Source: Anaerolineae bacterium (GTDB lineage Bacteria; Chloroflexota; Anaerolineae; Epilineales; Epilineaceae). Taken from it: a stretch of DNA of 64,000 bases. The stretch spans positions 83,036 through 147,035 of the forward strand of contig DAOUCP010000035.1 of NCBI GenBank assembly GCA_034432155.1, written 5' to 3'. Under the pieces are notes generated by a model, which was not told the origin of the DNA, ran no database searches, and saw only the letters and a list, made by a program, of their open reading frames with translations. This document shows, in pieces, positions 886 to 53,302 of the stretch. A program made the position numbers and the translations under genes. Positions within the stretch are counted from its first letter, which is position 1; the number at the start of each line of letters is the position of its first letter.

Positions 886-1028
886 TTCTGGACTCTCAGG
901 CGATGGCAACAGGGTACGAAGCCGATGGCGACTCGCGTTCCCGATGCCGGCGAATCCTAGGCAGGCGCCGAGAGGCCGCCAAGTCCTGCCGGCAGCCTCA
1001 GCTGCCCGAACGCCCGTTCGCTGATATA

Positions 1029-8107: not shown

Positions 8108-8273
8108 CGTCCGAACGGGTGGCAGGGGCCTGCCCTTCGCATCCTGCCTCCGAAGGACGCATAATCAGGGGCGTGGGTCGACGCATGGTCGGCCCGCGCT
8201 CCCTCTTGACCGACATCGTCGGCGGCCGGGAACCGACGGTCGCTGGCCATTCCAGCTTGACGGAGGCTCTGGG

Positions 8274-11200
8274 ATGCACCGTATTCTGAGGTTGGCGATC
8301 CGCGCCCTCGCTCTCGCGGCGCCGTTGGCTCTTGCCCGACCGGCGCTGGCAATCCAGTTGCCCGCAGTAGCGGACTCCTCTCTGCGCGCCATTCTGACCT
8401 GGCCCCCGAGTGATGGGCAGCAACCCATGGCGGTGATCGTCGAACTGCGAGGCCCAACGACCTTCGACTTGGTCCGGCGATCCGCCCACAAGCTCGGCGC
8501 AGGCACGGTGCTGGCGACTGCAGCGCGCGACGCGGCCTTTGCCACCGTGGCCGCTGCGCAAGCCCCAGCCCGACGGTATGTGGAGGCCACAGGGGCGCAG
8601 ATCATTAGCACGTACGACACCGCCCTTAACGGCTTCCTGGTGCGTGCCACGCCAGCCCAGCTGGAGCGCCTTGCGGCCACGCCGGGCATCGCGCGCATCT
8701 ACCGCGCGCCGGAGCACTATCCGCTACTCGGCGACGCCGTGCCGCTGGTCGGAGGCCAGCAGGTGGTGGAGAGCCTCGGGTACACCGGCAAGAATGTGAC
8801 CATCGCCATCATCGACCAAGGGATCGACTACACCCACAAGTCGCTTGGCGGGCGCGGACGCACCCAGGATTACGCCAACAATAATCCGAGCGTCGTCGAG
8901 CCGGGCTCCTTTCCCACCGACAAGGTCATCGGCGGCTACGACTTCGCCGGCACCGACTACGGCGCCACCGGCGTGCCGCGGCCCGATGACGATCCGTTGG
9001 ATGAGGGTGACCACGGTACCCACGTGGCGGGCATCGCTGCTGGCATGAAGGGCAACCCCAAGGTCCATCACGGCGTGGCCCCCGACGCCAAGCTGATCGC
9101 CCTCAAGGTGTTCGGTCGTGGTGGCGGAACCAACCTGTCCACCGACGCCATCGAGTGGGCCATCGAAGCCAACCTGGGGGCTACGGTTCCCGGCTCCTGC
9201 CAGATGCCGGGCGGCCAGCAGTGTCGCGTCGACGTCCTCAACATGAGCCTCGGTTCCCCTTGGGCGAACGGTGTGCTGGAGCAGACCGGTGCTGTTCAGC
9301 GGGCGGTGGAGGCGGGTATCGTGCTGGTCGCGGCCTCAGGCAACGACGATGACGTGCCGTTCATTCATGGCGCCCCCTCAGCTTCGCCGATGGCCCTGGC
9401 GGTCGCCAATACCTTCCATGGCGGCCTCAAGGGAGACGTCGTGGAAGCGACGGTTGGCTCCCAAACGGTGCAGCTGGAGGCCCTGCAAGGCGGCACCGAC
9501 GCCACTGGCCAGCTCAGGCTGGGGAAAGCCATGGACGAGGTGGGTGAGATCAAGGCACCCCTGGCCGACTTCGGACGCGGCTGCACCGCCGATCAGCCGT
9601 CCGCACCGGAGGTGACGGGCCAGGTGGCGCTGATCGAGCGCGGCACCTGCTCCTTTAGCGAGAAGGTCGCCAACGCAACCGCCAAGGGGGCCGTGGCGGC
9701 CCTGGTCTTCAACAACCAGCCGGGCATCCTGGTGATGGGGCCCACCGCCGGCTTCCAGGCGGACGACATCCCGGCCTACCTCATTCGGCAGGAAGATGGG
9801 CTGGCCCTGCGAGAGCAGCTGCGGTCTGTTGCCGTGCGCATCCGCATGGCCAAGGCGCTCAACGGCACCTTCGTGCGCAGCTATCTGGCGGATGTGATCG
9901 GCCCAGGCAGCAGCCGGGGGCCCGCTCGATCCGGCGCGTTCAAGCCCAACATCTCGGCACCGGGCACCGAGATTGTCGCCCCCAAGCGTGCCCAGGGCGA
10001 TGCCGGGATCGCCTTTTCCGGCACTTCCATGGCAGCACCCTTGGTGGCGGGCGGGGCTGCGGTGCTGATCGAGCGGTTGCGGGCCGAAGGCCTGGCCCCA
10101 AAGGATGCGCCCCTGGCCGATCCGAACCAGGTCACCGCCGCCGACGTCGCCGCTCTGCTCATGAACTACGCCACAGCGCACGTCTACCGCGACGACAATC
10201 GCCTACCCGACTACGTCCCCCTCGCCCGCCAGGGATCGGGGCGCATGAACCTGCTGGCGGCCGCCAAGGGCCACACCTTAGCCCGCGCTGGCTACCTGGC
10301 GGAGATTGACTTCGGAATCCGAGGTCTGGTCGAGGACTACACCGACAGCGCCACCGTGACCATTCGCAACCTGAGCCGTGAGACCAGGAGCTACGATCTC
10401 TCGACGGAGTTCAACACACCGGGGAAAGCCAACCGGGGAGTCCGGTACGATGTGACGCCGGCCAGCCTGGTATTGGAGCCCGGCGCTTCGGCCGAGGTGC
10501 GTGTCCAAGCCTCCGTGGCGACGGCCCTGCTCGCGCCCTTTGGCGCATACGGCGGCGCCAGGGCGCTCCAAAGCGGACCGATCGGGGATGCCGAGATCGA
10601 CGGCTTCGTCGTTGTGACCTCGCGGGTGGAGGGAGGCGAGCCGGAAGTCAGCCACCTGCCCATCTACTTCCTGCCCCGGCGGGCGGCCGCCGTGGTGGCT
10701 TCGCCGGACCCCTTGCGCATCAGCCCCACGACAGGCAGCGGCACCATCGTTTGGCAGAATAACGCACCCGGCGACGGTGTTGCCGAGCTGTTCGCCCATC
10801 TCGGTTCCGATGCGCTCGGCGAGGCCCCCCCGCGCTTGGACGTGGACCACGTCGGGGCCCGTCTGGGCGTGGACAGCCAAGGTCGCCGCATGGTCAGCCT
10901 GGCGGTGCATACCCAGGCGGCGCGGCGCGTACCGATTGATTCCGACACCTTCGTGCTCATCGATGCCAACCGCGACGGGACGTACGATCAAGCGGCCCAC
11001 GTGGGCCTGGTGAACGGCGTGCTCGTCACGGCGGTGCAGCAAGTCACCCGCCAGGAGCCGCTCGCGTTCTCGCGCCAGGCGGTCGCCGACTTCGAGGCCG
11101 ATGTGAACATCGAGAGTGGCATCGTCATCCTGCATGTGCTGGCCAGCCGGATCGGCGTGGACGAGAGTGGACCGGTACGGATCGACCTCGGTGTGTTGCA

Positions 11201-11624
11201 CCTCGCGAATTTCGCCGATGTCGCCGGTGCGCTGGATGCCATCCCCTTCGATGCCGCGCCCGACAACGCGTTTATCTTCAGTCCGCAAGGGGCGATTTCG
11301 GCCGGCCCGGACCGATTCCACCTTGCCAGCGACGAGCTGGGATACCGCCTGGATCAGTGGACGGTGCCGATGAGCTGGGGATCCCAGACCACGCAGGCCA
11401 TCCAGAGGGTCAACGGGGCACCGCTGGCCGGTCAGCGAATCCTGGCCCTCTATCCGCAGAATGTGCCCGGCGACGGGGACATGCAGCTTCTGGCCATTCT
11501 AGAGGAGGAGGCGCCGACGCCGACGCCCATCGCCTTCCCGACCGACGAGCCGCCAGACCGCGACCACGACATCTTCCTGCCGGCAGCCCTGGTCAACGAG
11601 GTCATTGGCGTGGCCTCACCCTAG
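8274..11624 (+). CDS. Secreted S8 subtilisin-like serine protease B, paralog of A (I9 + S8 + PA)
   Basis: The track ORF 7809 overlaps protease A. The in-frame ATG at 8274 (MHRILRLAIRALALAAPLALA) gives a signal peptide with GGAGG 9 nt upstream. Motifs IAIIDQGIDYTH, HGTHVAGIAAG, GTSMAAPLVAGGAAVL. PA domain GQVALIERGTCSFSEKVANATAKGAVAALVFNNQPG. Long collinear identity to A. Confidence 0.85.
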   Translation: MHRILRLAIRALALAAPLALARPALAIQLPAVADSSLRAILTWPPSDGQQPMAVIVELRGPTTFDLVRRSAHKLGAGTVLATAARDAAFATVAAAQAPARRYVEATGAQIISTYDTALNGFLVRATPAQLERLAATPGIARIYRAPEHYPLLGDAVPLVGGQQVVESLGYTGKNVTIAIIDQGIDYTHKSLGGRGRTQDYANNNPSVVEPGSFPTDKVIGGYDFAGTDYGATGVPRPDDDPLDEGDHGTHVAGIAAGMKGNPKVHHGVAPDAKLIALKVFGRGGGTNLSTDAIEWAIEANLGATVPGSCQMPGGQQCRVDVLNMSLGSPWANGVLEQTGAVQRAVEAGIVLVAASGNDDDVPFIHGAPSASPMALAVANTFHGGLKGDVVEATVGSQTVQLEALQGGTDATGQLRLGKAMDEVGEIKAPLADFGRGCTADQPSAPEVTGQVALIERGTCSFSEKVANATAKGAVAALVFNNQPGILVMGPTAGFQADDIPAYLIRQEDGLALREQLRSVAVRIRMAKALNGTFVRSYLADVIGPGSSRGPARSGAFKPNISAPGTEIVAPKRAQGDAGIAFSGTSMAAPLVAGGAAVLIERLRAEGLAPKDAPLADPNQVTAADVAALLMNYATAHVYRDDNRLPDYVPLARQGSGRMNLLAAAKGHTLARAGYLAEIDFGIRGLVEDYTDSATVTIRNLSRETRSYDLSTEFNTPGKANRGVRYDVTPASLVLEPGASAEVRVQASVATALLAPFGAYGGARALQSGPIGDAEIDGFVVVTSRVEGGEPEVSHLPIYFLPRRAAAVVASPDPLRISPTTGSGTIVWQNNAPGDGVAELFAHLGSDALGEAPPRLDVDHVGARLGVDSQGRRMVSLAVHTQAARRVPIDSDTFVLIDANRDGTYDQAAHVGLVNGVLVTAVQQVTRQEPLAFSRQAVADFEADVNIESGIVILHVLASRIGVDESGPVRIDLGVLHLANFADVAGALDAIPFDAAPDNAFIFSPQGAISAGPDRFHLASDELGYRLDQWTVPMSWGSQTTQAIQRVNGAPLAGQRILALYPQNVPGDGDMQLLAILEEEAPTPTPIAFPTDEPPDRDHDIFLPAALVNEVIGVASP

Positions 11625-11680
11625 AGCGGCCGGCAGCTTGCGCCGGCAACGCGGCAGCGCCCGTGTATACTGGTGGCCGC

Positions 11681-12970
11681 ATGTCGGTGCCGCGCATTGC
11701 CATCGACGCCCGACTGCGTGCCTATCGCAGCGCGGGCATTGCCAGCCACGTCGAGTGCCTGCTCGACGGGCTGCAACAACTCCGGCTCGACGAGCCGTTT
11801 GTGGTGCTGCTCCACCGTCGCGATCGGAGCAGTGTGCCAGTGTCGCCCGTCGATCGAAGCAGTGGGCCCCTCTCTTCCACAGATTGTGGCCGGGGGGCCG
11901 TGTTCTCCGCCGATCCGGGCCGGAGGCCCGTGTCTTCCCCGGCCCTTTCTGGGACAGCCATCGGCCAGCGGCGGCTGTGGACCCCACCCCACCATCGTTG
12001 GGAGGACTGGTTGCTGCCGCTGGAACTGGCCAGTCACCGCATCCATCTGTTCCATGCCACTGACTTTGTCGTGCCCCGCGGCTGGCGCGGCGCCGCCGTG
12101 GCCACGGTGCACGACCTGGCTTTCCTGCGACATCCCGAGTTCGTCACCCCCTCCAGTGCCCGTTACTACGCGGGCGTTCACCACACTGTGCATCGCGCCC
12201 AGCGGATCATCGCCGTTTCGGAGCACACGCGGCGCGAGTTGCTGGCACTAACGGACATCCCTGCCGACCGCATTCGCGTCGTGCCGAACGCGCTCCGCCC
12301 GGCCTTCCGTGCGCCCGCCGACCCGGACGCCGAGGCAGCGGTGGTTGCCGGCCGCGGTGTCCGCGAGCCCTTCCTGCTGTTTGTGAGCACGGTGGAGCCT
12401 CGCAAGAACGTAGTCACCCTCCTGGACGCCTTTCGGAGCCTGCTGGACGAGGGTCGCCAGCTCGACCTCGTCCTCATCGGCGCCGATGGGTGGAACAGCC
12501 GGCTGGTCTACGAACGGGCGCAACAGCTGGCGCTGGCCGACCGGGCGCACTTCCTCGGCTTCGTGCCCGATGCCGAACTCGTGGCCTTCTACCGCCGGGC
12601 GGCAGTGCTGGCCCACCCGGCGCACGACGAGGGCTTCGGCTTTGCCCCTTTGGAGGCCATGGCGTCCGGCACACCTGTTGTTGTCGCCGATGCCGGCGCC
12701 CTACCCGAGGTGGTTAGCCAGGCAGGCCTGCAGGTTCCCGCCACCGAGCCTGGTGCATGGGCGACGGCGTTGGCGCGACTGTTGGACGATCGGCAACTGG
12801 CCGTTTCGCTCGCGGCAGCGGGTCGCGAGCGCGCGGCGCATTTCAGCTCTCGCCGCATGGCCGAGCGCACCGTTGCCGTCTACCGGGAGGCCTGGGCGGT
12901 CGCCGGCCACTCGTCGCGCGAGACAGCGAAGGACGCCGAATCGACCACCGGCGGCAACGACGGGCCATGA
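11681..12970 (+). CDS. Glycosyltransferase family 4 (GT-B fold)
   Basis: In-frame ATG at 11681 (MSVPRIAID...). C-terminal GT4 signature EGFGFAPLEAMASGTPVV. The N-domain contains an imperfect-repeat insertion (RDRSSVPVSPVDRSSGPLSS.. / ADPGRRPVSSPALSG). TATACT at 11666-11671 lies 9 nt upstream of the ATG, so the mRNA is likely leaderless. Confidence 0.8.
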   Translation: MSVPRIAIDARLRAYRSAGIASHVECLLDGLQQLRLDEPFVVLLHRRDRSSVPVSPVDRSSGPLSSTDCGRGAVFSADPGRRPVSSPALSGTAIGQRRLWTPPHHRWEDWLLPLELASHRIHLFHATDFVVPRGWRGAAVATVHDLAFLRHPEFVTPSSARYYAGVHHTVHRAQRIIAVSEHTRRELLALTDIPADRIRVVPNALRPAFRAPADPDAEAAVVAGRGVREPFLLFVSTVEPRKNVVTLLDAFRSLLDEGRQLDLVLIGADGWNSRLVYERAQQLALADRAHFLGFVPDAELVAFYRRAAVLAHPAHDEGFGFAPLEAMASGTPVVVADAGALPEVVSQAGLQVPATEPGAWATALARLLDDRQLAVSLAAAGRERAAHFSSRRMAERTVAVYREAWAVAGHSSRETAKDAESTTGGNDGP

Positions 12971-13010
12971 AGGAGCGGCTGACGCAACCCGCTGCCCGCG
13001 GAGCCGTCTG

Positions 13011-14318
13011 ATGGCCAGCGCATTGCCGGTAGGGTCCCAACCGGCCCCAGGCACAGGGAGCGAGCCTCGGCCGCCGCGTAGGGGGCGCGTGTTGCTCCTG
13101 ACACCGCAATCGCCCTGGCCGCCGCGGCAGGGCACGGCCGTCCGCAACTGGCACATCGCCCGAGAGCTCGCTTCGCGCTACCGTGTCAGCATCCTCGCCT
13201 TCGGCAGCTCCGACGACGCAGTGGGGCTGCGCCAGGCAGGCATCGAACCATTCCTGGTGCCCTCCCCAGCCCAGCGGTCCCTCCTACGACGGGCCACCGA
13301 GCTCGCCATCACCCTGACGCCCGACCTGGTGCGGCGCTTGCGCTCGGCGGCCATGACGAACGCCCTCTTGCGGCTTCTCGACGAATCCCGCATCGAGGCG
13401 GATCCCTTCGCGGTGATCCAAGTCGAGGGGCTGGAAATGGCCGCTTACGGCGAGGCAGCACGCAACTGGTGGCTGCGATCCGGAACCGCCGGGCGGCTGA
13501 TCTACGATGCGCACAACGCCGAGTGGCTGCTCCAGCACCGCGCCTGGCAGGCGGACCTGCGGCGGCTTACTGGCTGGCCCGGTGCCGCCTACTCGTTCGT
13601 CCAGACGCTCAAGCTACGCCGCTTCGAAGCCCACTTCCTGCGGCGGGTCGATGGCGCCATCGCCGTGAGTCGCGCCGACCGGCTGGCGCTGCAGCGGCTG
13701 GCACCTCGCCAGCAGGTGGTCGAAGTACCCAACGGTGTTGACACCGACTACTACCGGCCCGCGGACCGGGCGCGGGAAGTACCGGGCCGCTGCCTGTTCG
13801 TGGGCAAGATGGACTTCCGGCCCAACATCGACGCCATGGCCTGGTTCGTGACGCAGGTCTGGCCACGGATTCGCCGCGAGCAGCCGCACGCGGAGTTGCG
13901 CATCGTGGGCCGCCAACCGGTGCCGCGTGTCCTGGCCTTGGCGGGCGATGGTGTGGCGGTGGCCGGCGAGGTGGCCGACGTGCGGCCCGAGCTGGAGGCG
14001 GCCGCCGTCGTGCTGGCGCCATTGCGTGTGGGAGGCGGCACCCGCCTGAAGATCCTGGAGGCCATGGCGATGGCCAAAGCAGTTGTGGCCACCTCGCTGG
14101 GTGCCGAGGGACTCGAGGTCAAAAGGGACGAGGAGCTGCTGGTGGCCGACGAGCCAGCCGACTTGGCGCAAGCCGTGGTGACGGCCTTGCGCGACCCTCA
14201 GCGCCGTGCGCAGCTTGGGGAGTGCGCGCGGGCTCGGGTCGAAGCGTGCTATCGTTGGCAGACGCTGGTGCCACGAATGGAAGGCTTGTATCCGCCTGCC
14301 ATCCGTCCGGAAGTGTGA
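13011..14318 (+). CDS. Glycosyltransferase family 4 (second, tandem)
   Basis: In-frame ATG at 13011 (MASALPVGS...). C-domain carries the EX7E-type motif ...RLKILEAMAMAKAVVATSLGAEGL. The N-domain VLLLTPQSPWPPRQGTAVRNWHIARELA is typical of a GT4 N-domain. Confidence 0.8.
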   Translation: MASALPVGSQPAPGTGSEPRPPRRGRVLLLTPQSPWPPRQGTAVRNWHIARELASRYRVSILAFGSSDDAVGLRQAGIEPFLVPSPAQRSLLRRATELAITLTPDLVRRLRSAAMTNALLRLLDESRIEADPFAVIQVEGLEMAAYGEAARNWWLRSGTAGRLIYDAHNAEWLLQHRAWQADLRRLTGWPGAAYSFVQTLKLRRFEAHFLRRVDGAIAVSRADRLALQRLAPRQQVVEVPNGVDTDYYRPADRAREVPGRCLFVGKMDFRPNIDAMAWFVTQVWPRIRREQPHAELRIVGRQPVPRVLALAGDGVAVAGEVADVRPELEAAAVVLAPLRVGGGTRLKILEAMAMAKAVVATSLGAEGLEVKRDEELLVADEPADLAQAVVTALRDPQRRAQLGECARARVEACYRWQTLVPRMEGLYPPAIRPEV

Positions 14319-14552
14319 CGAACCCAGCTCGCCGTTGGCCCGGCCCTCGACCGGCTGGCCACTGGGCCGGCCGACAAGGCGAAGTGGCTGCTGGCACCGG
14401 TGCTGGAGGCACCCCTTTTTCCCACACCCCAACGCGGCCGTATAATGCGCCCTGCACGGCTCGCAACACGTGTCCGGCAGGTGCGGGTTGCCGTGCCGGC
14501 CCGCAGCCAGCGGAGCGAAGTCGCTTGGGCCTCGGCCGAGCGGAGACGACGG

Positions 14553-15284
14553 ATGACCCAGATACTGGACCTGGCGGCAATCGCCGAACAAGTGGAGGTG
14601 CCGTACCACTGCATCCCGGTGGCTCATCTGGGCAGCGCCGAGGTGTCACTGTTCATCTGCCAGGGCGCTCGGAGCTGGCATCGAAGACTGGCGCGGCCTC
14701 ACATGCTGATCGTCACCGAGGGCGTAATCACCGTCGATTGTGCTTCGGGCAAGACGATCGTCGGCGAGGGGGAAGTCGTGTCCGTGCCGGCGGAGGTGGC
14801 GTACAACACCTATTCGGGCATGCGTTCGACGGTGCTCAGCATCGAGAACCTGGGCACCACAGGACGCGACAATGGCCACGAAACGCTAGCCCCGCCAGGG
14901 CGGGCCTCAGTCACCAAGGTAAGCGCTGCTGTAACGGCCCGCAAGGCGCCCGAGTTCGCCTGGTTGCCGTGCGGCGCGGCGGGCAGCACCGTGGCTGCAG
15001 CCAGCCGCCTGCGCGGCTCGAGCGGCTTCTACGTCGTGCCCAGCGGATCGCTTCTCTTGGCCGTCTACCGCGGCGTGCTTGACTACCGCTCGGGCGAGGA
15101 AGAAGGCACGGTGGTAGGCAACCAGCTGCTCTTGGTTAACTCTGGCGAAGACCTGACACTCCGCTCGGGGCATGGCGCTACCGTCATGGCCATCGTGGCG
15201 CGCGGCGTGCCACTGCCAGCTCCGGCTGCAGCCGGCCCTGAGCCCCGCCAGGGGCAGCGCTCCGATCCACCGCCCGGTGAGTAG
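14553..15284 (+). CDS. Cupin-fold hypothetical protein
   Basis: The ORF 14400..15284 is open from 14400. A TATAAT at 14441-14446 lies inside it, so the likely start is the ATG at 14553 (MTQILDLAAIAEQVEVPYHCIPVAHLGSAEVSLFICQG...). The beta-rich sequence is consistent with a double cupin. Function is unknown. Confidence 0.45.
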   Translation: MTQILDLAAIAEQVEVPYHCIPVAHLGSAEVSLFICQGARSWHRRLARPHMLIVTEGVITVDCASGKTIVGEGEVVSVPAEVAYNTYSGMRSTVLSIENLGTTGRDNGHETLAPPGRASVTKVSAAVTARKAPEFAWLPCGAAGSTVAAASRLRGSSGFYVVPSGSLLLAVYRGVLDYRSGEEEGTVVGNQLLLVNSGEDLTLRSGHGATVMAIVARGVPLPAPAAAGPEPRQGQRSDPPPGE

Positions 15285-15368: not shown

Positions 15369-18300
15369 TTGCCGCAGCCGAGCCCGCACCCGGTGAGTTC
15401 TCGGTTCCGTCTCTGGCGCGCGGTGCTGGGAGGCTTGCTGCTCCTAACCGTAGCTGTGTGGCCCCTCGCCGAGGCCCATTCGCGAGCCGTAGCCGGCCTT
15501 GTGCGACCGCCGGCCGTGGCAGACCATCGTGCGGCAGACCGGTCGCCGACCGCAGCACGGACCCTCCCCGGCGGACGGGGTCCCCGTGCCGTGGTGGATC
15601 CCGCGCTGCGACGCGAACTGGCCCACGCGGGCGAGCGCCACATTCCGGTGATCGTCCACTTGGCTCTACCCGAAAAGAGTGAGCCCGCGGCCTCATCGGG
15701 CAATGCTCTGACCAGTCTGCAAGCGCGTCCGCTGGCCTTTGCGCGCTATGCCCAGCCGCTGCTGGCCTATCTGGAGCGCGAGCGGCAGGCCGGTCGGATT
15801 GGGCGCGTGACATCCCTGTGGCTGGCCAACGCCGTAGCAGTCACCGTGGCACCTGCGGCCCTGCCCGACCTGGCGGCGGCGCCCGGCGTGCGTTTCCTTG
15901 CCCTTGACGGCTCGCTGCATCTCGAACCCTGGCAGTCCTTGGGCGCGGATCCCGGCCGGGCAGCGGAAAGCCCGCCGCCATGGAACATCCGGGCGGTGCG
16001 GGCCGATGAGGTGTGGCGGCTCTTTGGCATCGACGGCAGCGGTGTCACCATCGCCGTCCTGGATACCGGTGTCGACGTTCACCACCCCAGCCTCCGAACG
16101 CGCTATCGGGGCTATCTGTCCGGAGGCTTCCGGAACCGGGGCAACTGGTGGTGCCGACCGGAAGACCCACTGTGCGGGTTCGGCAACGCCTACCCCGTGG
16201 ACAGCATTGGCCATGGTACCCACGTCGCCGGCACCGCCGTCGGCGGCGATGGCATCGGCGTCGCCCCCGGGGCGCACTGGATTGCTGCTCGCGTGTGCGC
16301 CGACGTCACCTGCCAGGTCAGCTGGATCATCGAAGGCCTGCAGTGGCTGTTGGCTCCGGGCGGAGCGAGCGACCTGCGTCCGGACATCGTGAACCTGAGT
16401 CTGGGCAATGAGGACAGCGACGGGAGTCTCGTGCTCAAGAACAGCATCGATGCCCTCACAGCAGCCGGCATCGTCGTCGTGGCCTCCGCCGGCAACCGCG
16501 CCGGCACCGTGACCGAGCCGGCCAGCTACCCGAACGTGATTGCCGTCGGCGCCGTGGATTCCAGCCTCCGTCGCTGGCCGCAGAGCGGCTACGGATCGAC
16601 CCTTTGGCAACAGAACAAGCCCGAACTGATGGCTCCGGGGGTGGCGATCACCTCGGCCATCCCCGGCGGCGGTTTGGGCGTGAAGACCGGCACCAGCATG
16701 GCCGCGCCACACGTCAGCGGCGTGATCGCCTTGCTCAAGCAAGCCAAGCCGGATCTTACGCCGGCCACGGTGGCAGTTATCCTGAAGCGAACGGCGACAG
16801 CTGTGGGACCCATCCAGCCGAACGCCCAGTCGGGCTGGGGCCTCGTCAACGCCTATGCGGCCGTAGCCACCGTGGGTGAGGTCGGCTTCGTGCGCGGGCG
16901 CGTGACCCGGCTCGACGGCACCGCCATTCCCTGGGCGCGCATCGGGCTGCACGAACTGGGCGGCGGTGCGCTGGCCACTGTCGAGGTGGACGAGGACGGC
17001 AAGTACGAACTCGCCGTCCGGCCTGGGGTTTACAGCCTGACGGCGGAAGCCTTCGCCTTCGGCCCTCGGACCGAGCGGCCGGTGACGGTGCAGAAGGACG
17101 AGACCAGCCAAGTGGATTTCGTCCTGGAGCCCCTCCCTTCGGTGGGCCAGTTCGCCGGCTGGGTGTACGCCCGTCGAGGTAGTCAGCGGATCCCGATGGC
17201 TGCCCGGCTGGAGCTACTGAATGTGCCAAGCGAGTTTGCCCTGCGGTCGAACCCCGACACCGGATTCAGCGCCCAACTGCCTGCCGGCCGCTACACGGTG
17301 CGTATCCGCGAGCTAGGCTACCGCATCCTGACCGACACCGTCACCATCACTGCCGGAGCCACCATCACCCGCTCCTATGAGCTTGACCCGGCACCGCGCA
17401 TCCTCCTCGTGGACGGCGACGCCTGGCTCTATCGACCGGCCATCGATCGCTTTCGCCAGGCGCTGGATCGCACCGGCTACCCGTTCGATGAGTGGCCGGT
17501 GATCGATGATTCGGCCGGACCCGGCGCCGACGGCGGCCCGCCGCGGCTGGAAGACCTCCAGCGCTACGACATCGTTGTCTGGTCGCACCATACCAGTTCG
17601 CCAGGCACGGTGAATGCCGCCGAAGTGTTGGACAAGTACCTGGCGGCAGGTGGAAGACTGTTCCTGACCGGGCAGGACATCCTGTGCCTGGATGGCGGCT
17701 CGGACGCCGGCAGCGACGCCTGCAACCGTCAGCCACAACAGCACCCGTACGTGGAGCGCCGCTTGCGCAGCCGCGTGGTGCGCGACAACTCCGGCAGCCT
17801 GACCATCATGGGCACGCCGAGCGGGCTCTTGTCAGGCCTGCGGCTGACGCTCAATGGGCCGGACAGCGCCGACAATCAGGTCGCTCCCGACGTGCTTCGG
17901 CCGCTTGATCCGTTGGCGGCAGCGCCCATTGCCACGTACGAGGGCGGTGGCGACGCCGGGATGCAGGTGGGGCCATGCGCCGCTGGGCGCGCGGTGATCT
18001 TCGGCTTCGGGTTCGAAGGCATCGCTGGGGCACGGCTGCGGGACCAGGTGATGGCACGTGTGATCGAGGGCTTGTGGCGTGCCGAACCCCCGAACCGACT
18101 GCGCCTTCGGGCGGACCTCGATCGCCGATCAGCGGACGTCGGCAGGACACTCAGTTTCACCGTCACGCTGCGCAACGTCAGCACGCTGAGCGCGACCGTC
18201 GACATTCGGTTGGCGAATCACGCCTGGCCGTGGACGCTTTGGCAGGCAGGCTTTGACAAACCGCTCGGCGAGCCACTGACGCTCGGCGGTTGCGCGCAGG

Positions 18301-19856
18301 TCGACTTCGGCGTCCGAACACGCGTGCCGGACGTGCCCCGTGGCGCCTTGGACCACGCCACCGTAGTGGCTTCCGATGGACGTGCCAGCTCCGCCGTCAG
18401 TCTTACGCTGACCGCATCTCGACTGGCCCCCCTCTTGCTCGTCGACGGCGACTTCTTCTACCAGAGCGAGGACCGGTACGTGGCCGGGCTCCGGCGGCTC
18501 GGCCTGGCATACGACCACTGGGAGCTCGGACTCTTGCGCCATGCGCCTGACATTCCGTCGGCGGCCGATCTGGCCGCCTATCCGGCGGTCATCTGGTTCA
18601 CGGGCTACGACTGGCGGCCCGACGGCAGCCTCAACCTCGACGGCCAGCGCGCCCTGGCCACGTACCTGGGAGCGGGCGGTCGGCTGCTGTTTTCCAGCGA
18701 AGACTACTTACTGATTCGTGCTACCACCCCATACACCGCCGACCGGCTGTTTCACGCCGATTTTCTGGGCGTCGCCGGCTACGCCATCGATGACGGACAA
18801 GCCCACCAGGGTCCCCTGCGCGGGGCGAAGGAGAGCATCTTGGCCGGCCTCGATGGCTGCCGTCTGCCGCTGCGCAGTCCAAGAGATGACCTCAGCGACG
18901 CGCTCGTGCCTAGACCCGAGGCTCGGCCAGCGCTGCTGGATGGCGCCGGTCAGGCCGTCGGCCTGGAGGTGGCCGTCCCACCGTTCAAGTCCCTGTTCCT
19001 GGCGCTTGACCTGGGCCTCATGGATTCGGAGTGCAGCGCCGAGATCATCCGGCGCGCGGTGGACTGGTTCAGCCCCATGCATCCAAGCTCCCTCCAGGTG
19101 GCGGATGGCCGTCTCGTCCTTGCGGGCGGCGACGACGTGCGCCTCGACTTGAAGCTGTGCAACGAAGGCCGGCAGGTGGCCTCCGGGGTGGCCGTTCACT
19201 GGGATCTGCCACCCAGCACAACGGTTACGGCGCCACCCGCGGACTGGGATTTCCTGCCGCCACGAACCCTGCGCTGGACCGGTTCGCTGGCTGCCAGCGA
19301 GCGGCGCCTCGTCACCACAGAGCTGCGTCTGGCCGACGACGTGCCGCCCAACAGCCACCTGCAGACCTCGGTGGCCATCACGGACCCGCAGGGGCTGCCC
19401 CTGCGCCGCAGCCTCAGCCTGCGAGCCAATGCCCCCGATCTGGCGCCCTCGCACAAGGCCGTCCATACCGGCCAGAGTCCACCTGCATTCGGCGAGCTGG
19501 CGACGTTCACCATCGTCGTCCGCAACTCGGGAACGCGCATCGCAAGCGCCGTGGCCGTCACCGATTGGCTGCCCAGCGGGCTGCGCCTGGTACCCCAATC
19601 GGTCCACGTCGACAGCGGTGAGGCGGCGGTAGGCGCCGATGGCCGCAGCCTGGTTTGGCATACCTCGGTGGCACCGGGGCGTGTCGCGGCCGTGTCGTAC
19701 GATGCGCGGGTGGTTACATCCGCTGGCGGACGTCTTCGCAACGTGGCGTTGGTGCGCGATGAATCGGGCACCGAGGTGTGGCTCAGCTCCGAACTGGCAG
19801 CGCAGGCGCGGTTGCCGCTCCCCTGCCTGCTCGTGGGGAGTGCGCCCGGCCGCTGA
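15369..19856 (+). CDS. Giant secreted multidomain S8 protease C (I9 + S8 + two beta-sandwich domains + two ThuA/GATase1-like domains + DUF11-like domain)
   Basis: TTG start with GGGGAG RBS. Signal peptide RLWRAVLGGLLLLTVAVWPLAEA. Motifs VTIAVLDTGVDVHHPSL, HGTHVAGTAVGG, GTSMAAPHVSGVIALL. Two ThuA-like segments (YDIVVWSHHT...GGRLFLTGQD and YPAVIWFTGYDW...GGRLLFSSED) follow. A C-terminal DUF11-like region ATFTIVVRNSGTRIASAVAVTDWLPSGL follows. Confidence 0.8.
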   Translation: MPQPSPHPVSSRFRLWRAVLGGLLLLTVAVWPLAEAHSRAVAGLVRPPAVADHRAADRSPTAARTLPGGRGPRAVVDPALRRELAHAGERHIPVIVHLALPEKSEPAASSGNALTSLQARPLAFARYAQPLLAYLERERQAGRIGRVTSLWLANAVAVTVAPAALPDLAAAPGVRFLALDGSLHLEPWQSLGADPGRAAESPPPWNIRAVRADEVWRLFGIDGSGVTIAVLDTGVDVHHPSLRTRYRGYLSGGFRNRGNWWCRPEDPLCGFGNAYPVDSIGHGTHVAGTAVGGDGIGVAPGAHWIAARVCADVTCQVSWIIEGLQWLLAPGGASDLRPDIVNLSLGNEDSDGSLVLKNSIDALTAAGIVVVASAGNRAGTVTEPASYPNVIAVGAVDSSLRRWPQSGYGSTLWQQNKPELMAPGVAITSAIPGGGLGVKTGTSMAAPHVSGVIALLKQAKPDLTPATVAVILKRTATAVGPIQPNAQSGWGLVNAYAAVATVGEVGFVRGRVTRLDGTAIPWARIGLHELGGGALATVEVDEDGKYELAVRPGVYSLTAEAFAFGPRTERPVTVQKDETSQVDFVLEPLPSVGQFAGWVYARRGSQRIPMAARLELLNVPSEFALRSNPDTGFSAQLPAGRYTVRIRELGYRILTDTVTITAGATITRSYELDPAPRILLVDGDAWLYRPAIDRFRQALDRTGYPFDEWPVIDDSAGPGADGGPPRLEDLQRYDIVVWSHHTSSPGTVNAAEVLDKYLAAGGRLFLTGQDILCLDGGSDAGSDACNRQPQQHPYVERRLRSRVVRDNSGSLTIMGTPSGLLSGLRLTLNGPDSADNQVAPDVLRPLDPLAAAPIATYEGGGDAGMQVGPCAAGRAVIFGFGFEGIAGARLRDQVMARVIEGLWRAEPPNRLRLRADLDRRSADVGRTLSFTVTLRNVSTLSATVDIRLANHAWPWTLWQAGFDKPLGEPLTLGGCAQVDFGVRTRVPDVPRGALDHATVVASDGRASSAVSLTLTASRLAPLLLVDGDFFYQSEDRYVAGLRRLGLAYDHWELGLLRHAPDIPSAADLAAYPAVIWFTGYDWRPDGSLNLDGQRALATYLGAGGRLLFSSEDYLLIRATTPYTADRLFHADFLGVAGYAIDDGQAHQGPLRGAKESILAGLDGCRLPLRSPRDDLSDALVPRPEARPALLDGAGQAVGLEVAVPPFKSLFLALDLGLMDSECSAEIIRRAVDWFSPMHPSSLQVADGRLVLAGGDDVRLDLKLCNEGRQVASGVAVHWDLPPSTTVTAPPADWDFLPPRTLRWTGSLAASERRLVTTELRLADDVPPNSHLQTSVAITDPQGLPLRRSLSLRANAPDLAPSHKAVHTGQSPPAFGELATFTIVVRNSGTRIASAVAVTDWLPSGLRLVPQSVHVDSGEAAVGADGRSLVWHTSVAPGRVAAVSYDARVVTSAGGRLRNVALVRDESGTEVWLSSELAAQARLPLPCLLVGSAPGR

Positions 19857-19963: not shown

Positions 19964-21061
19964 GTGGATCGTCTTGACGAAATGGCCCGGGTCGTTCGCG
20001 ACCTGGCCGCCCAGGTCGAGGCCTTGCGCGCTAACGCCACCGGGGTGCAGGCGCGTCTGACCACCATCGAGGGACAACTCGCCGCGACGTTGGCCGCCCA
20101 GGCCGACCTGGCCGGCCAGCTGGAGCATGTGCGACTCGATCGCACGCGTTTGGCGACCTTGGAGCGAAGCCTCGGCCAGCTTGGCGAAGACCGCCAGCGA
20201 ACCATCGACCAGTTGGCAGCCGATGTGCGGCGCACCGCGGACGAAGCGCTGCGGCGCATGGCGGGGCAGTTGCAGCAGAGAAGTCATGAGCTGGCAGCGC
20301 TAGCCATGCGCGTCGATGCCTTGGAAAAGGAGGCCCAGTTCGGGACCTTGGCGGGCCAAATGGACCTCCTCGGCCAGCAGCTCGCCGCGCTGGCGGTGCG
20401 CCTGGACGAAATGCAGCGCGAGCGCCAGGCCATCGAGGAGACCGCGCGCCAGCGCGAAGACCGTACCGCAGGACGGCTGGCCGACCTCCAACGCCAGCTC
20501 GGCCAACAAGAGCAGAATGTGGCCGGCTGGCAGGCGCGAATCGAGGCCCAGAGCGAGACCGTTCGGCAGAGCCAGGCGCTCGCCGAACAGATGGCGGAGG
20601 AGGTGCGCGGACTGCAGCGCGCCCAGCACGAGCTGGCCGAGGCACAGCGCGTGTGGCGGGAGCAGCTGAGCGGCTCGCTGGCTGAGCGGCTGGCTTCCTG
20701 GGAGTCCGAGTGGCAGGCCTTCCTGGTGCAGCAAGAGCAGGCGAGGCGGCTCCGCGATGGGCATATTTCGGCCATGGAGGCTACCTTGCGCTCGCTGGAG
20801 GAACGAGTGGTCGAACTGGCCGGCCAGATCCAGGGGCAAGCGGATGCGGCGCGGCAGGAGGCACAGGCGCATGCCGACGCCCTTCGGGCCAGCCGGGAGG
20901 AGCTGCTGCGGGTGGTGACCGCGGTGCATGATCGGCTGGGCCAGGTGATCCGCGACTGGGAAGCCGACTTGCCGTACGAAGCGCGGCCGTCGGTGGTGGA
21001 GGAGCGGCGACGGGCACTCCGTCGGGAGCGCCGCGCACGGCAGGAGGCGCCCGAGGACTAG
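19964..21061 (+). CDS. Coiled-coil hypothetical protein
   Basis: GTG start with GGAG 10 nt upstream. The protein is heptad-like and Ala/Gln/Leu/Arg-rich (…LAAQVEALRANATGVQARLTTIEGQLAATLAAQADLAGQLE…). The stop lies 4 nt before the selB start. Confidence 0.5.
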   Translation: MDRLDEMARVVRDLAAQVEALRANATGVQARLTTIEGQLAATLAAQADLAGQLEHVRLDRTRLATLERSLGQLGEDRQRTIDQLAADVRRTADEALRRMAGQLQQRSHELAALAMRVDALEKEAQFGTLAGQMDLLGQQLAALAVRLDEMQRERQAIEETARQREDRTAGRLADLQRQLGQQEQNVAGWQARIEAQSETVRQSQALAEQMAEEVRGLQRAQHELAEAQRVWREQLSGSLAERLASWESEWQAFLVQQEQARRLRDGHISAMEATLRSLEERVVELAGQIQGQADAARQEAQAHADALRASREELLRVVTAVHDRLGQVIRDWEADLPYEARPSVVEERRRALRRERRARQEAPED

Positions 21062-21064
21062 CCG

Positions 21065-22987
21065 ATGCTCCAGGACAAGGTGGTCGTGATCGGCACCGCG
21101 GGCCACGTCGATCACGGGAAGAGTGCGCTCCTCAAAGCACTTACGGGCACCGATCCCGATCGCCTGGCCGTGGAACGCGAACGGGGCATGACGATCGATC
21201 TGGGCTTCGCTTGGTGCCGACTGGCCAGCGGCATGCTCGCCAGCTTCGTCGATGTGCCAGGCCACGAGGATCTCGTCCATCACATGGTCGCGGGCGCAAC
21301 GGCAACGGATGCGGTTCTCCTGGTCGTTGCCGCTGACGAGGGGCCCATGCCTCAGACCCTCGAGCACCTCCAGATCCTCGATCTCCTCGGAATCACTCGC
21401 GGTGTGGTGGCGCTGACCAAAACCGACCTGGTAGACGCCGAGTGGCTGGCGCTCATTCGTCAGGCTGTCCACGAGATGCTGGCGTCCACCTCGCTGGCCG
21501 ATGCACCCCTGGTCGAGGTGAGCGCCGTCACCGGCGACGGCCTGGGAAATCTCACCACTGCCCTGGACCGCATCCTCGCCAGCACCCCTCCTCCTTTGGA
21601 CCGCGGCCGTCCGCGATTGCCGATCGACCGCGTCTTCACATTGGCCGGACTTGGCACCATCGTCGCCGGCACGCTGCGCGATGGGACGCTCGGGGTGGGG
21701 CAAGCGGTTGTCCTTCTGCCTTCGGGCTTGCGCTCGCGGGCGCGCAGCATCCACACCTACGGCCAAGCTACGTCCACCGCCGGCCCGGGCGCCCGCACGG
21801 CCGTCAACGTGGCCGGCGTAGACGTGGGGCAGATCCGTCGGGGCGACGTGCTCGTCGCGGACATGCCGTATCCGGTTAGTCAGCGGCTGGACGTCGAGTT
21901 GCGCGTTCTGCCGACCGCCAGGCCGGTGCGGCACGACATGACGGTGGCCTTCTTCCACGGCGCAGGCCAGATTCCAGCGCGCGTGCGCACCATCGGCGGG
22001 GCGGCGATCGGGTCCGGCGAGTCGGGCTATGCCCAGCTCATTCTGGCCACGCCGGCAGTGGTGGCGGCTGGCGACCGCTTCGTGATTCGCCAGCCGTCGC
22101 CGTCGAGGACGCTGGGCGGTGGCCGCGTGCTCGACCCCTGCGCGCCCCGGCGCTGGCGAAGGCTCCGGCCCGAGACCCGCCAGCGATTCGAGGATTTGGC
22201 CAGCGGTGCAGCCGATCGCGCACTCTGGCACCTTGTCGAGGAACGTCAACCGTGTCGGCTGGCGGCTCTGCCTGCTGCCGAGAGCGGTCTGGAGGCCCAC
22301 GAGCGAGACCTTGCTGCCGCGATGCTCGAAGCGGACGGCCGAGTGAAGCGCCTTGGCGAGGTGTGGTTCACCGACCGTGGTTGGGATGCCTTGCGACGAC
22401 GGGCCGAGGCAACGGTGGCCGGCTACCATGCGCGCCATCCGTTGCGCCAGGGAATGGCGGTGGAGGAGCTTCGGCAACGACTCGGCCTGGACGGCGAAGC
22501 CTTTGCCGCCTTCTTGGTCCAGGCTGCAGCCGAAGGTTGGCTGGTGAGGGCGCCTCGAACCGTTGCTTTGCCTCGTCACCAAGTGCGTTTCCGGCCCGAG
22601 GAGCAGGCGGCGGCCGCGGCGCTCCTGGCTCGCTTCCGGACCGCACCCTACACTCCGCCCTCGGCCAAGGAGGCACGACTGGCGGTCGGTCCCGAGGTGT
22701 TGGCGGCTTTGGTCGAGCGCCAGGAACTGATGGAGGTCAGCGACGAGGTTCTGTTGAGCCACGATGCCTACGAACAGATGCGCCAAGCGGTGCTGGACAT
22801 CCTGGCCAGCGCAGGGCAGATCACCATTGCCGATCTGCGCGATCGTTTCAAGACCAGCCGTCGCTATGCCCAGGCCTTTCTGGAGCACTTGGACCGGCTG
22901 CACGTGACTCGTCGCCAGGGCGATGCCCATGTGGCAGACGTAACGAGTGAGCGTGGCGGCTCGCCGCGTGACGAGGGGCATGCGTGA
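21065..22987 (+). CDS. selB: Selenocysteine-specific translation elongation factor SelB
   Basis: G1 GHVDHGKS, G2 RGMTIDLG, G3 DVPGHE. G4 is TKTD (E. coli SelB has TKAD). G5 SAVTGDG. C-terminal winged-helix domains end ...ITIADLRDRFKTSRRYAQAFLEHLDRLHVTRR, typical of the SelB mRNA-binding domain. Confidence 0.85.
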   Translation: MLQDKVVVIGTAGHVDHGKSALLKALTGTDPDRLAVERERGMTIDLGFAWCRLASGMLASFVDVPGHEDLVHHMVAGATATDAVLLVVAADEGPMPQTLEHLQILDLLGITRGVVALTKTDLVDAEWLALIRQAVHEMLASTSLADAPLVEVSAVTGDGLGNLTTALDRILASTPPPLDRGRPRLPIDRVFTLAGLGTIVAGTLRDGTLGVGQAVVLLPSGLRSRARSIHTYGQATSTAGPGARTAVNVAGVDVGQIRRGDVLVADMPYPVSQRLDVELRVLPTARPVRHDMTVAFFHGAGQIPARVRTIGGAAIGSGESGYAQLILATPAVVAAGDRFVIRQPSPSRTLGGGRVLDPCAPRRWRRLRPETRQRFEDLASGAADRALWHLVEERQPCRLAALPAAESGLEAHERDLAAAMLEADGRVKRLGEVWFTDRGWDALRRRAEATVAGYHARHPLRQGMAVEELRQRLGLDGEAFAAFLVQAAAEGWLVRAPRTVALPRHQVRFRPEEQAAAAALLARFRTAPYTPPSAKEARLAVGPEVLAALVERQELMEVSDEVLLSHDAYEQMRQAVLDILASAGQITIADLRDRFKTSRRYAQAFLEHLDRLHVTRRQGDAHVADVTSERGGSPRDEGHA

Positions 22988-23892
22988 CTCGACAGCTCGA
23001 CGTCGCGGTGGCCATTGTGAGCTTCGAGACGGCACCGCTGCTCGAGCGGTGCTTGCGCTCCTTGCACGAGGGTGGCTTGGACGGCCTGGCCGCCGGAGTG
23101 TGGGTTTTCGACAACGCCTCGCAAGACGGCAGCGTTGCCGTGGTGCAGCGAGAGTTCCCCGACGTGCACCTCCTGATGAGCGACCGCAATCTCGGCTATG
23201 CCGCAGCGAACAACCAACTGCTGCGCGATGCGGGCTTTGCCGCCGGCGGCAGCGCCCTCGCCCGGCACGCGCTGCTGCTCAACCCCGACACCGTCGTGCC
23301 GCCGGGCGCCATTGCAGAGCTGGTGGCCTTTCTGGAAGCCGAGCCGGATATCGGCGTGGTCGGCCCCAAGCTGGTGCGCGCCGACGGTTCGCTGGACCTG
23401 GCTTGCCGCCGCAGCTTCCCCACTCCGGCCGTGTCCCTCTACCGCTTCGCGGGCCTGTCGCGCCTGTTTCCTGGAAGTCGACGGTTCGGCCGGTACAATC
23501 TGACCTACTTGGACCCAGACCTGCCCGTGGACGTGGACGCTGTGGTCGGTGCTTGCATGCTGGTCCGAGGTACGGCCATCGAGCAGGTCGGCCTGCTGGA
23601 CGAGCGCTTCTGGATGTACGGCGAAGATCTTGATTGGGCGTTCCGGATCCGCCAGGCCGGCTGGCGGGTGGTGTATCGCCCGCAGGTGACGATCCAACAC
23701 GTCAAGCGCGCTGCCGCGGCGCGAAGCTCGCGGGCCAGCTATGAGTTCACGCGTGCGATGTGGTTGTTCTATCAGAAGCACTATGCTCGCACTACGAGCC
23801 GGCCCATCCATTGGCTGATCGTGCTGGCCCTCGCCTTGCGTGGGGGTCGGCGGCTGATCGCCGAGATGCGTGCTGCCCGGAGTGGTCCGTGA
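22984..23892 (+). CDS. Glycosyltransferase family 2
   Basis: VAIVSFETAPLLERCL...VFDNASQDGS...NLGYAAANN fits the GT-A fold. The GTG start overlaps the selB stop (GTGA). The stop overlaps the next start (GTGA). Confidence 0.75.
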   Translation: MTRQLDVAVAIVSFETAPLLERCLRSLHEGGLDGLAAGVWVFDNASQDGSVAVVQREFPDVHLLMSDRNLGYAAANNQLLRDAGFAAGGSALARHALLLNPDTVVPPGAIAELVAFLEAEPDIGVVGPKLVRADGSLDLACRRSFPTPAVSLYRFAGLSRLFPGSRRFGRYNLTYLDPDLPVDVDAVVGACMLVRGTAIEQVGLLDERFWMYGEDLDWAFRIRQAGWRVVYRPQVTIQHVKRAAAARSSRASYEFTRAMWLFYQKHYARTTSRPIHWLIVLALALRGGRRLIAEMRAARSGP

Positions 23893-25319
23893 AGCGTGAT
23901 GCCCGTTGTCGCCGCCTTTGGCTGGAGCGACTGTCGCAGCTGGCGCTCGACCTCCTTGGCTTCGCCCTGGGCATTTGGCTGGCCTACGCGGTGTACCTCC
24001 GGACGGTGGTGCAGGATGCGACCGCGCCCCCCAGCGGCTTTGGGGAGTACGGCGTCGAAGTGGGACTCGGCTACCTGGTGCTGGTGCAAGTTCTCACCCT
24101 CTCGGTGGTGTTCTTCAGCGCCCGGCTTTACCACCAGCCGCGAGGAGTGTCGCGGGTGGATCTGGCGGCGCACATCCTGCGGGCCGTGTCGATTGGGATT
24201 CTCCTATCCATGGCCGTGATCAGCCTGGTGTTGCCCAGACTGGAGGTCTCGCGTCGCATCCTGGTCTACGACTGGCTTCTCACCTTCGCTCTGGTCCTCG
24301 GGCTGCGTCTTGTTCACCGGTCGGTATGGAGCAGCATTCGAAAGCGCGGCATTGGTTGCGACCGCGTGCTGGTGGTCGGAGCCGGTACCGAGGCGCAGGA
24401 CCTGCTGACGCGTATCCAGGCCCGGCCCGCCTTGGGCTACCAGGTGGTGGGCGTGGTGGCCGATGTGCCACGCTTGTCCCGCGTCCGCGGCGTGCCGATC
24501 GTCGGCCGCACGAGCCAGCTCGCGGACCTGGTCGAGCGCCTGGCGGTGGATGAGGTTCTGATTGCCCTGCCGGAGCCGTCGCGGCAACAGCTGCTGGAAC
24601 TTACGAGCCAGTGTTCGCGCGAAGGTCTGTCCGTCCGCATCTATCCCGACGTGTTTCAGATCCTCGCCAGCGAGCTGCGCATGGGGCACCTGGATGGCTT
24701 GCCGCTATTAACGATGCACGACGTGGCACTCAGCGGCTGGCGTCGATCGTTGAAGCGCTTGATCGACATCGCCTTCAGCGGCACCGCCCTAGTGCTGCTC
24801 TCGCCGCTCATGCTCCTCGTCGCCATCCTGGTGAAACTGGACTCGCCGGGCCCGGCCTTCTACGTGCAGGAACGCATGGGGCTGGACGCGCGCCCCTTTC
24901 CGATGCTGAAGTTCCGCACCATGCGGGCCGATGCCGAGCGGGATTCGGGCGCCGTCTGGGCGGTACGCGAGGATCCGCGGCGCACCCGCATTGGCCGCTG
25001 GTTGCGGCGAACGAGCATCGACGAACTGCCGCAGCTCATCAACGTGCTCCTCGGTCACATGAGCGTAGTCGGGCCGCGCCCCGAACGGCCCGAGTTCGTG
25101 CGCGAGTTCCAGCGTCAGATCCCGCGTTACATGGAGCGGCATCGCGAGAAGTCAGGCATCACCGGCTGGGCGCAGGTGAACGGGCTGCGGGGCAGCACTT
25201 CAATTGCTGAACGCACGAAATATGACCTATACTACGTTGAGAACTGGTCCCTTCTGTTTGACTTTCGCATCATGGCACTGACAGTCCTCCAGTTCTTCCG
25301 CGATCCCAACGCTTACTGA
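23889..25319 (+). CDS. Polyprenyl (undecaprenyl)-phosphate glycosylphosphotransferase, WbaP/WcaJ type (exopolysaccharide priming enzyme)
   Basis: N-terminal TM helices. C-terminal bacterial sugar transferase domain LKRLIDIAFSGTALVLLSPLMLLVAILVKLDSPGPAFYVQERMG...IDELPQLINVLLGHMSVVGPRPERP. In-frame GTG at 23889 overlaps the GT2 stop. Confidence 0.8.
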   Translation: MKRDARCRRLWLERLSQLALDLLGFALGIWLAYAVYLRTVVQDATAPPSGFGEYGVEVGLGYLVLVQVLTLSVVFFSARLYHQPRGVSRVDLAAHILRAVSIGILLSMAVISLVLPRLEVSRRILVYDWLLTFALVLGLRLVHRSVWSSIRKRGIGCDRVLVVGAGTEAQDLLTRIQARPALGYQVVGVVADVPRLSRVRGVPIVGRTSQLADLVERLAVDEVLIALPEPSRQQLLELTSQCSREGLSVRIYPDVFQILASELRMGHLDGLPLLTMHDVALSGWRRSLKRLIDIAFSGTALVLLSPLMLLVAILVKLDSPGPAFYVQERMGLDARPFPMLKFRTMRADAERDSGAVWAVREDPRRTRIGRWLRRTSIDELPQLINVLLGHMSVVGPRPERPEFVREFQRQIPRYMERHREKSGITGWAQVNGLRGSTSIAERTKYDLYYVENWSLLFDFRIMALTVLQFFRDPNAY

Positions 25320-37127: not shown

Positions 37128-37334
37128 GCCCCCGCCCTCAACCTCCTTGGACAGTATGCGCATTTCGCTGCGGCCCGCCAAGGAGCAAGCGCCAGGGCAG
37201 CTCTGCTCTGGCGCGCCCGCCCACGCTTCCCGGCTGCACCGTCCGCCGGCCGTCCCTGGGCGCGTCCCTGCCAGCTGCAGCCATCCCCGCGCTCCCGCGT
37301 GTCACCGGCACACCCCAATGCGCCTCGCGCTGGC

Positions 37335-51875: not shown

Positions 51876-53228
<1,353 letters not shown>

Positions 53229-53302
53229 CAGCCCAGGCGCCTGCCGCCTTGCGAGCTCGGGCGCCGTGCTCGCCGCGAACCGTGGGCCGGCGGCGGTGGG
53301 CG

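Follow-up and report, generated by a model that had tools for sequence, protein, structure and literature searches.

Several described systems carry domains with a class-I glutamine-amidotransferase-like (GATase1-like) fold. Besides the catalytic class-I glutamine amidotransferases (HisH, PdxT, the N-domain of GuaA, PabA), they include the ThuA-like proteins (PF06283; PDB 1t0b, 4jqs, 4e5v), which consist of one domain, stand alone and have been linked to the use of sugars, and the non-catalytic GATase1-like domains of glycoside hydrolases (Glyco_hydro_42M/GLMA_2nd; PDB 7vkw, 5gsm, 3tts, 4oif, 6t5o, 7bob). Human site-1 protease (S1P/MBTPS1; PDB 8uw8), a Golgi enzyme that is anchored in the membrane and has its own cofactor, SPRING, contains a subdomain of the GIFT type. 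Here we describe a subtilisin-type protease encoded at positions 15369-19856 (+ strand) of a window of 64,000 nucleotides, this being the whole stretch of DNA that was analysed (contig DAOUCP010000035.1 of an Anaerolineae bacterium, positions 83,036 to 147,035). All features of the protease given below lie on the + strand. Its middle part holds two GATase1-like modules, module A (residues 674-908; 17388..18092), which is devoid of the catalytic triad, and module B (residues 1017-1239; 18417..19085), in which the conserved pocket is degenerate.

These modules belong to an unnamed, very large and triad-less family within the class-I glutamine-amidotransferase-like superfamily, and this family tracks extracellular peptidases. 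The layout of the protease is the standard one in a widespread Anaerolineae protease family, of which the window protein is an ordinary member. The novelty lies in the module itself, not in the protease layout.

The first 100 residues of modules A and B identify the two as paralogs (BLASTP E 4e-9). Both carry LLVDGD (679-684 in A, 1023-1028 in B) and a GGRL motif (GGRLF at 761-765, GGRLL at 1103-1107), two of the motifs quoted in an earlier note made on this DNA; the third, YD(I/V)V, was found as YDIVVW at 733-738 in module A, and module B reads YPAVIW instead. The AlphaFold models were confident, with a predicted local distance difference test score (pLDDT) of 80.8 and a predicted TM-score (pTM) of 0.85 for module A, and values of 91.8 and 0.92, respectively, for module B. 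Fold comparison of these models gave better matches with the non-catalytic GATase1-like domains of glycoside hydrolases than with S1P. STM3548 scored 16.2/16.1, a Planctomycete "GATase1-like protein" 15.7/15.0, the ThuA-like proteins 15.1/14.1/13.4 against module A and 14.6/14.0/12.4 against module B, and the bona fide amidotransferases about 10-14; IFT52 and OST48 (the "GIFT" branch) were also returned, and Foldseek agreed with the GATase1-like fold.

Based on these models, modules A and B share a predicted GATase1-like fold at the superfamily level, and both a ThuA-like three-dimensional fold and the GATase1 alpha/beta fold were recognised in them. This part of the ThuA/GATase1-like assignment made in the earlier note stands, and no profile search placed the modules in a fold unrelated to ThuA, the outcome that the note had named as damaging to it. 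The ThuA part fell: PF06283 (cut-off 33.4 bits) gave no match at E ≤ 10, either with the whole protein or with the isolated modules, and the best score within the family (P0010) was 21.2 bits. Membership in the ThuA family was ruled out by this failed scan. The similarity of fold is what speaks for a reading in which modules of the ThuA family, made for sugar utilisation, unexpectedly became the middle part of an extracellular protease through an uncommon fusion; we consider it highly improbable, as PF06283 is unmatched, structure and sequence alike bring the modules nearer to other GATase1-like groups, and the fusion is not rare in view of the number of module representatives, genomes and peptidase families reported below.

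Neither Pfam nor NCBIfam has a model that covers the module. DUF4159 (PF13709) remained below its cut-off in the window protein (13.7 vs 25.9 bits, E 0.046, residues 728-767 only); it was passed by ortholog P0041 (30.9 bits), with a match at positions 23-88 of the 202 profile positions. The GIFT-type Pfam models (PF09822 ABC_transp_aux, PF03345 OST48_N) did not match, and a few module copies reached GLMA_2nd, DUF4159 or DUF2194 at E ≤ 1e-5. When the A1 module profile was compared with all PDB sequences, a spurious fumarase match (E 1.3) was the only one returned. Also, no description of the module was found in the searchable literature.

An exhaustive search with the module profile covered 1.84 billion representatives, and the counts that follow are of representatives at 50% identity. 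The module family comprised 8,797 proteins at E ≤ 1e-3 and 1,676 at E ≤ 1e-30. Among the best 158 module representatives, 83 held an S8 domain and 65 had the layout of S8, CarboxypepD_reg and two modules with a conserved spacer, DUF11 being present as well in at least 42 of these 65. The window protein holds every element of this Anaerolineae layout. With one genome scanned per species, the cassette was found in at least 473 genomes; the best 80 of them, on which taxonomy and identity are based, were nearly all labelled Chloroflexota, mostly Anaerolineae (two records had no phylum label), with an identity to the window protein of at most 51%. The window cassette is 57% identical to that of P0020 and 44% identical to that of P0001, and orthologs of the protease matched with E values down to 1e-134. 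Source annotations were generic ("S8 family serine peptidase", "uncharacterized repeat protein (TIGR01451 family)", "hypothetical protein").

S8 lay directly upstream of the modules in all 64 loci with enough flanking sequence. Since these loci are independent, a misassembly or artefactual fusion was ruled out. The 1,495-residue subtilisin-type protease with two GATase1-fold modules is real, the ortholog matches and the 1,676 representatives at E ≤ 1e-30 lying well beyond chance. The architecture, which the earlier note had held to be unusual, is thus a common one. Also, the two modules are not consecutive, as had been thought: an Ig-like beta-sandwich spacer of 108 residues (909-1016; 18093..18416) separates A from B, and a NEW3/CARDB-like beta-sandwich (residues 1240-1368; 19086..19472) follows B. 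The length of the spacer is kept among 65 orthologs (median 107 residues, range 103-122).

Besides its fusion to S8, the module was found joined, outside the Anaerolineae protease family, to C1, C11, C25, M1, M6 and M28 peptidases; the fusions occur across bacteria and archaea, named sources including Candidatus Auribacterota (PVC group) and one Thermoplasmatota archaeon. Its frequent companions were sorting domains of the type IX secretion system, CARDB/Ig domains or FlgD_ig, and giant proteins displayed arrays of 3-6 module copies with variable spacing.

Residue conservation was measured on 330 aligned module copies from 158 proteins. The family motif set is LLVDDD, WFTG, GGxLFxSGQD, NQxxPD and FGFE. 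No Cys or His column was conserved among the 330 copies (maximum 0.28 for Cys and 0.23 for His), so that retention of the catalytic Cys and His of the GATase fold, a possibility raised by the earlier note, is contradicted. The strand-4 elbow, the place of the ancestral nucleophile, reads S/T-G-Q-D (TGQD at 767-770 in A, SSED at 1109-1112 in B). In a mapping of the triad that follows the order of structural elements only, FGFE (880-883 in module A) holds the place of the amidotransferase FHPE and keeps Glu alone; in module B, LDLG (1213-1216) replaces FGFE and NQ is lost. An hhalign comparison of the module profile with the GATase domain of the window's own GuaA gave a probability of 0.4% and a meaningless alignment. 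Because there is no conserved Cys or His column and the FHPE equivalent keeps only Glu, the Cys-His-Glu triad has been lost in the module family. With Cys and His absent family-wide, glutaminase activity is therefore impossible.

A set of polar residues (D682, Q769/D770, N836/Q837, D841, E883 and R891) is conserved in 55-100% of copies. On the AlphaFold model they are found where strands 1 and 4 finish (the C-terminal ends of beta1 and beta4), within two loops and behind the final strand; this edge of the sheet would be the one that held the ancestral active site. In the window subclade, module B has lost most of the conserved pocket residues. C870, in the A-type module of the S8 family, is invariant in 65/65 clusters, at a site apart from that of the ancestral nucleophile. 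An inserted loop of low AlphaFold2 confidence holds two further Cys in the window subclade, the pair C773/C785. C773, C785 and C870 could possibly form disulfides.

Together, we propose that the protease is secreted, and probably envelope-associated, in Anaerolineae-type Chloroflexota. It consists, in order, of a putative signal peptide, a probably I9-like, divergent pro-region, an active S8 domain, two CarboxypepD_reg domains, twice a GATase1-like module followed by an Ig-like sandwich, DUF11 and a short conserved tail. Catalysis would be confined to S8. The modules would have an accessory, non-catalytic part, their relic pocket taking up a ligand and the protease being thereby positioned or tethered; the likeliest ligand is a glycan belonging to the cell envelope, the matrix or the substrate. 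Of the two copies, A would be competent, and B degenerate and structural. We infer ligand binding and the probable nature of the ligand from the relic pocket with its conserved polar residues, from the relationship to accessory domains found in carbohydrate-active enzymes and from the extracellular contexts. To this reading, as a whole, we give a probability of about 0.5.

Several points weigh against ligand binding by the modules. Sugar binding by GIFT domains is itself only a proposal. The grouping of the conserved residues into one pocket would follow from their positions relative to secondary-structure elements of a predicted model. The genes adjoining the protease gave no functional hint. 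Finally, the conserved carboxylates could equally be consistent with catalysis or metal binding, and the homologous domain in glycoside hydrolase family 42 (GH42) enzymes and in S1P works mainly by protein-protein packing.

The carboxylates bring in the first of two alternatives, in which the protein is bifunctional and the modules have an enzymatic activity of their own, based on novel catalytic machinery within the GATase1 fold; a hydrolase or amidase that uses carboxylates against glycans or peptide modifications is one example. Such an activity appears unlikely to us: a conserved nucleophile (Cys, His or Ser-His) is absent throughout the module family, the nearest structural relatives of the modules are non-catalytic domains, and module B is maintained despite the loss of its pocket residues. 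Packing, on the other hand, is at the centre of the second alternative. Taking as models the GATase1-like domain of GH42 beta-galactosidase trimers and the GIFT subdomain of site-1 protease, the modules may be purely structural and, through oligomerisation or intramolecular packing, stabilise or regulate the protease with no small ligand bound. We hold this to be possible, and it is the stronger of the alternatives considered. Nevertheless, pure scaffolds seldom keep polar residues in surface loops (NQ, D, E, QD) across fusions to seven unrelated peptidase families in bacteria and archaea. The tandem arrays, in which 3-6 copies follow one another at varying distances, are also better explained by a self-contained unit than by one dedicated to a single catalytic domain.

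Ligand binding by the modules can also be extended into a broader and more tentative hypothesis. The module may represent an ancient "peptidase-associated GATase1-like" domain whose relic pocket serves as an exosite for a specific ligand (glycan or metal), targeting or gating many classes of extracellular proteases in bacteria and archaea, with the GIFT subdomain of S1P as its evolutionary or functional counterpart.

The remaining parts of the protease were assigned as follows. The 1495-codon open reading frame (ORF) begins with a TTG codon, and a GGGGAG motif resembling a Shine-Dalgarno sequence, read directly from the sequence, is located about 7 nucleotides 5' of it. A scan for promoters and terminators around the gene was uninformative, and the G+C content is about 68% across the whole window. 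The N-terminus (residues 1-36; 15369..15476), read by eye, resembles a signal peptide, with a basic n-region (RFRLWR), a hydrophobic core (AVLGGLLLLTVAVW) and a cleavage-like site between AEA and HS; we infer secretion from these features. The reading frame given in the earlier note was recovered, as were the S8 domain and the two carboxypeptidase-regulatory-like sandwiches described below.

The pro-region (residues 37-205; 15477..15983) is probably a divergent I9-like one. With the I9 model (PF05922, cut-off 21.2 bits) nothing was matched in the window protein, even when isolated segments were scanned at E ≤ 10, and the I9 propeptide named in the earlier note was not confirmed by profile. Full-length I9 matches were obtained in orthologs just under the cut-off, with 16-19.9 bits (P0044, 19.9; P0036, 18.5), and pro-subtilisin E (3whi_A) aligns from query residue 150 at chain residue 41, i.e., into its own propeptide. 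A divergent I9-like propeptide is plausible, if unproven. Assignment of the S8 catalytic domain (residues 206-500; 15984..16868) was straightforward, based on the PF00082 match at residues 223-491 (191.8 bits vs a cut-off of 21.8, E 2e-56) and on the triad in Asp-His-Ser order, D232 (DTGVD), H282 (HGTHV) and S443 (GTSMA), with N376 (SAGN) as the Asn of the oxyanion hole. Subtilisin BPN' matched the protease at E 1.6e-37. The next two beta-sandwiches, of the CarboxypepD_reg/PEGA type (residues 505-590 and 591-673; 16881..17387), were recognised by PF13620 (70.3 bits vs 32.3, E 1.8e-19) in two stretches (508-587 and about 600-673), the second one being overlapped by a PEGA match at residues 636-674.

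The spacer between the modules had no significant Pfam match in the window protein; the equivalent region of ortholog P0050 gave weak CARDB and DUF7507 matches. For the sandwich that follows module B, the isolated segment matched NPCBM_assoc (E 0.0048) and DUF11 (E 0.026), and ortholog P0020 reached the NPCBM_assoc cut-off (24.4 bits). The two sandwiches are only weakly related to each other. The DUF11/TIGR01451 repeat domain (residues 1369-1465; 19473..19763) was identified with both PF01345 (58.5 bits vs 24.6, E 1e-15) and NCBIfam TIGR01451 (50.5 bits vs 24). DUF11 is thus present at the C-terminal end, as noted earlier, and does not close it, about 30 more residues following in a tail typical of the family (residues 1466-1495; 19764..19856 with the stop codon), which ends in AQARLPLPCLLVGSAPGR. 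A motif [YF][LF]P[LIV]xx[KR], at most about 10 residues from the C-terminus, was found with a strict regular expression in 44/66 orthologs, and the tail of the window protease is a variant of this ending (...RLPLPCLLVGSAPGR, 19764-19853). Two of the three other subtilases of the window, at 4616-8107 and 7809-11624, end alike (...GRLLLPMVLLGWARN and ...HDIFLPAALVNEVIGVASP). A role of this tail as a C-terminal signal for sorting or anchoring, specific to the lineage, is possible.

The genomic context of the protease consists of GT4/GT2 glycosyltransferases, SelB, a coiled-coil protein and an ORF with no family match, an arrangement conserved in only the 7-10 closest loci. Comparison of genomic contexts revealed no operon partner. 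Polysaccharide-biosynthesis genes flank the protease gene on both sides, with two GT4 glycosyltransferases upstream (11357-14318, +) and a GT2 and a Bac_transf/CoA_binding_3 sugar transferase downstream (22984-25319, +). The immediate neighbours, both kept in about 7 closest loci, are a 294-residue ORF with no Pfam or NCBIfam match (14400-15284, +) upstream and a 365-residue, coiled-coil-like ORF with weak SMC and SpiroCoCo matches only (19964-21061, +) downstream. The latter is followed by a gene for the selenocysteine-specific elongation factor SelB (21065-22987, +), recognised by its GTP_EFTU, SelB beta-barrel and winged-helix domains, which would imply selenoprotein synthesis in the organism.

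The three other large subtilases (4616-8107, 7809-11624 and 52841-56896, all +; 1163, 1271 and 1351 residues as listed) have a PA domain inserted in S8, one of them with an I9 match, and no GATase1-like module was found in them. The first two overlap by about 300 nucleotides as listed; therefore, the true start of the second is probably located further downstream. Also present are DnaE (DNA polymerase III alpha; 555-4619, +) and a GuaA-like GMP synthase (35283-37181, -) whose GATase motifs are all intact (GLCFG elbow, FHPE). These two housekeeping genes indicate that the window is chromosomal and not a mobile element.

The module has no Pfam or NCBIfam model and yet counts about 8,800 representatives, repeatedly joined to unrelated extracellular peptidases. 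Naming and characterising it would annotate much "dark" sequence in proteases secreted by Chloroflexota, a phylum abundant in wastewater, sediments and hot springs. If the exosite hypothesis is true, thousands of regions that now lack annotation would thereby gain a function, and a general principle of how secreted proteases are positioned would suggest itself.

Compared with the known systems, the Cys and His of the catalytic amidotransferases are absent from the module family. The ThuA-like proteins have a fold like that of the modules and no profile match with them; in contrast to these stand-alone proteins, the module is an extracellular repeat in multidomain peptidases. DUF4159, STM3548 (2gk3) and the Planctomycete protein 3rht are uncharacterised GATase1-like proteins near the module; the DUF4159 matches of the family span about one third of the profile, and no function of DUF4159 is described in the searchable literature. 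The non-catalytic domains of glycoside hydrolases are among the closest known relatives. Their partner is a glycosidase, whereas that of the module is a peptidase, and the window protein does not match the Glyco_hydro_42M/GLMA_2nd Pfam models, the module family having its own motif set. Human site-1 protease has a layout analogous to that of the window subtilase; its sequence similarity to the module is undetectable and its structural match is lower than that of the glycoside-hydrolase-type domains. S1P contains one GIFT subdomain, the window protease two modules, and characterising the module would offer a tractable bacterial model for this poorly understood domain of the human enzyme.
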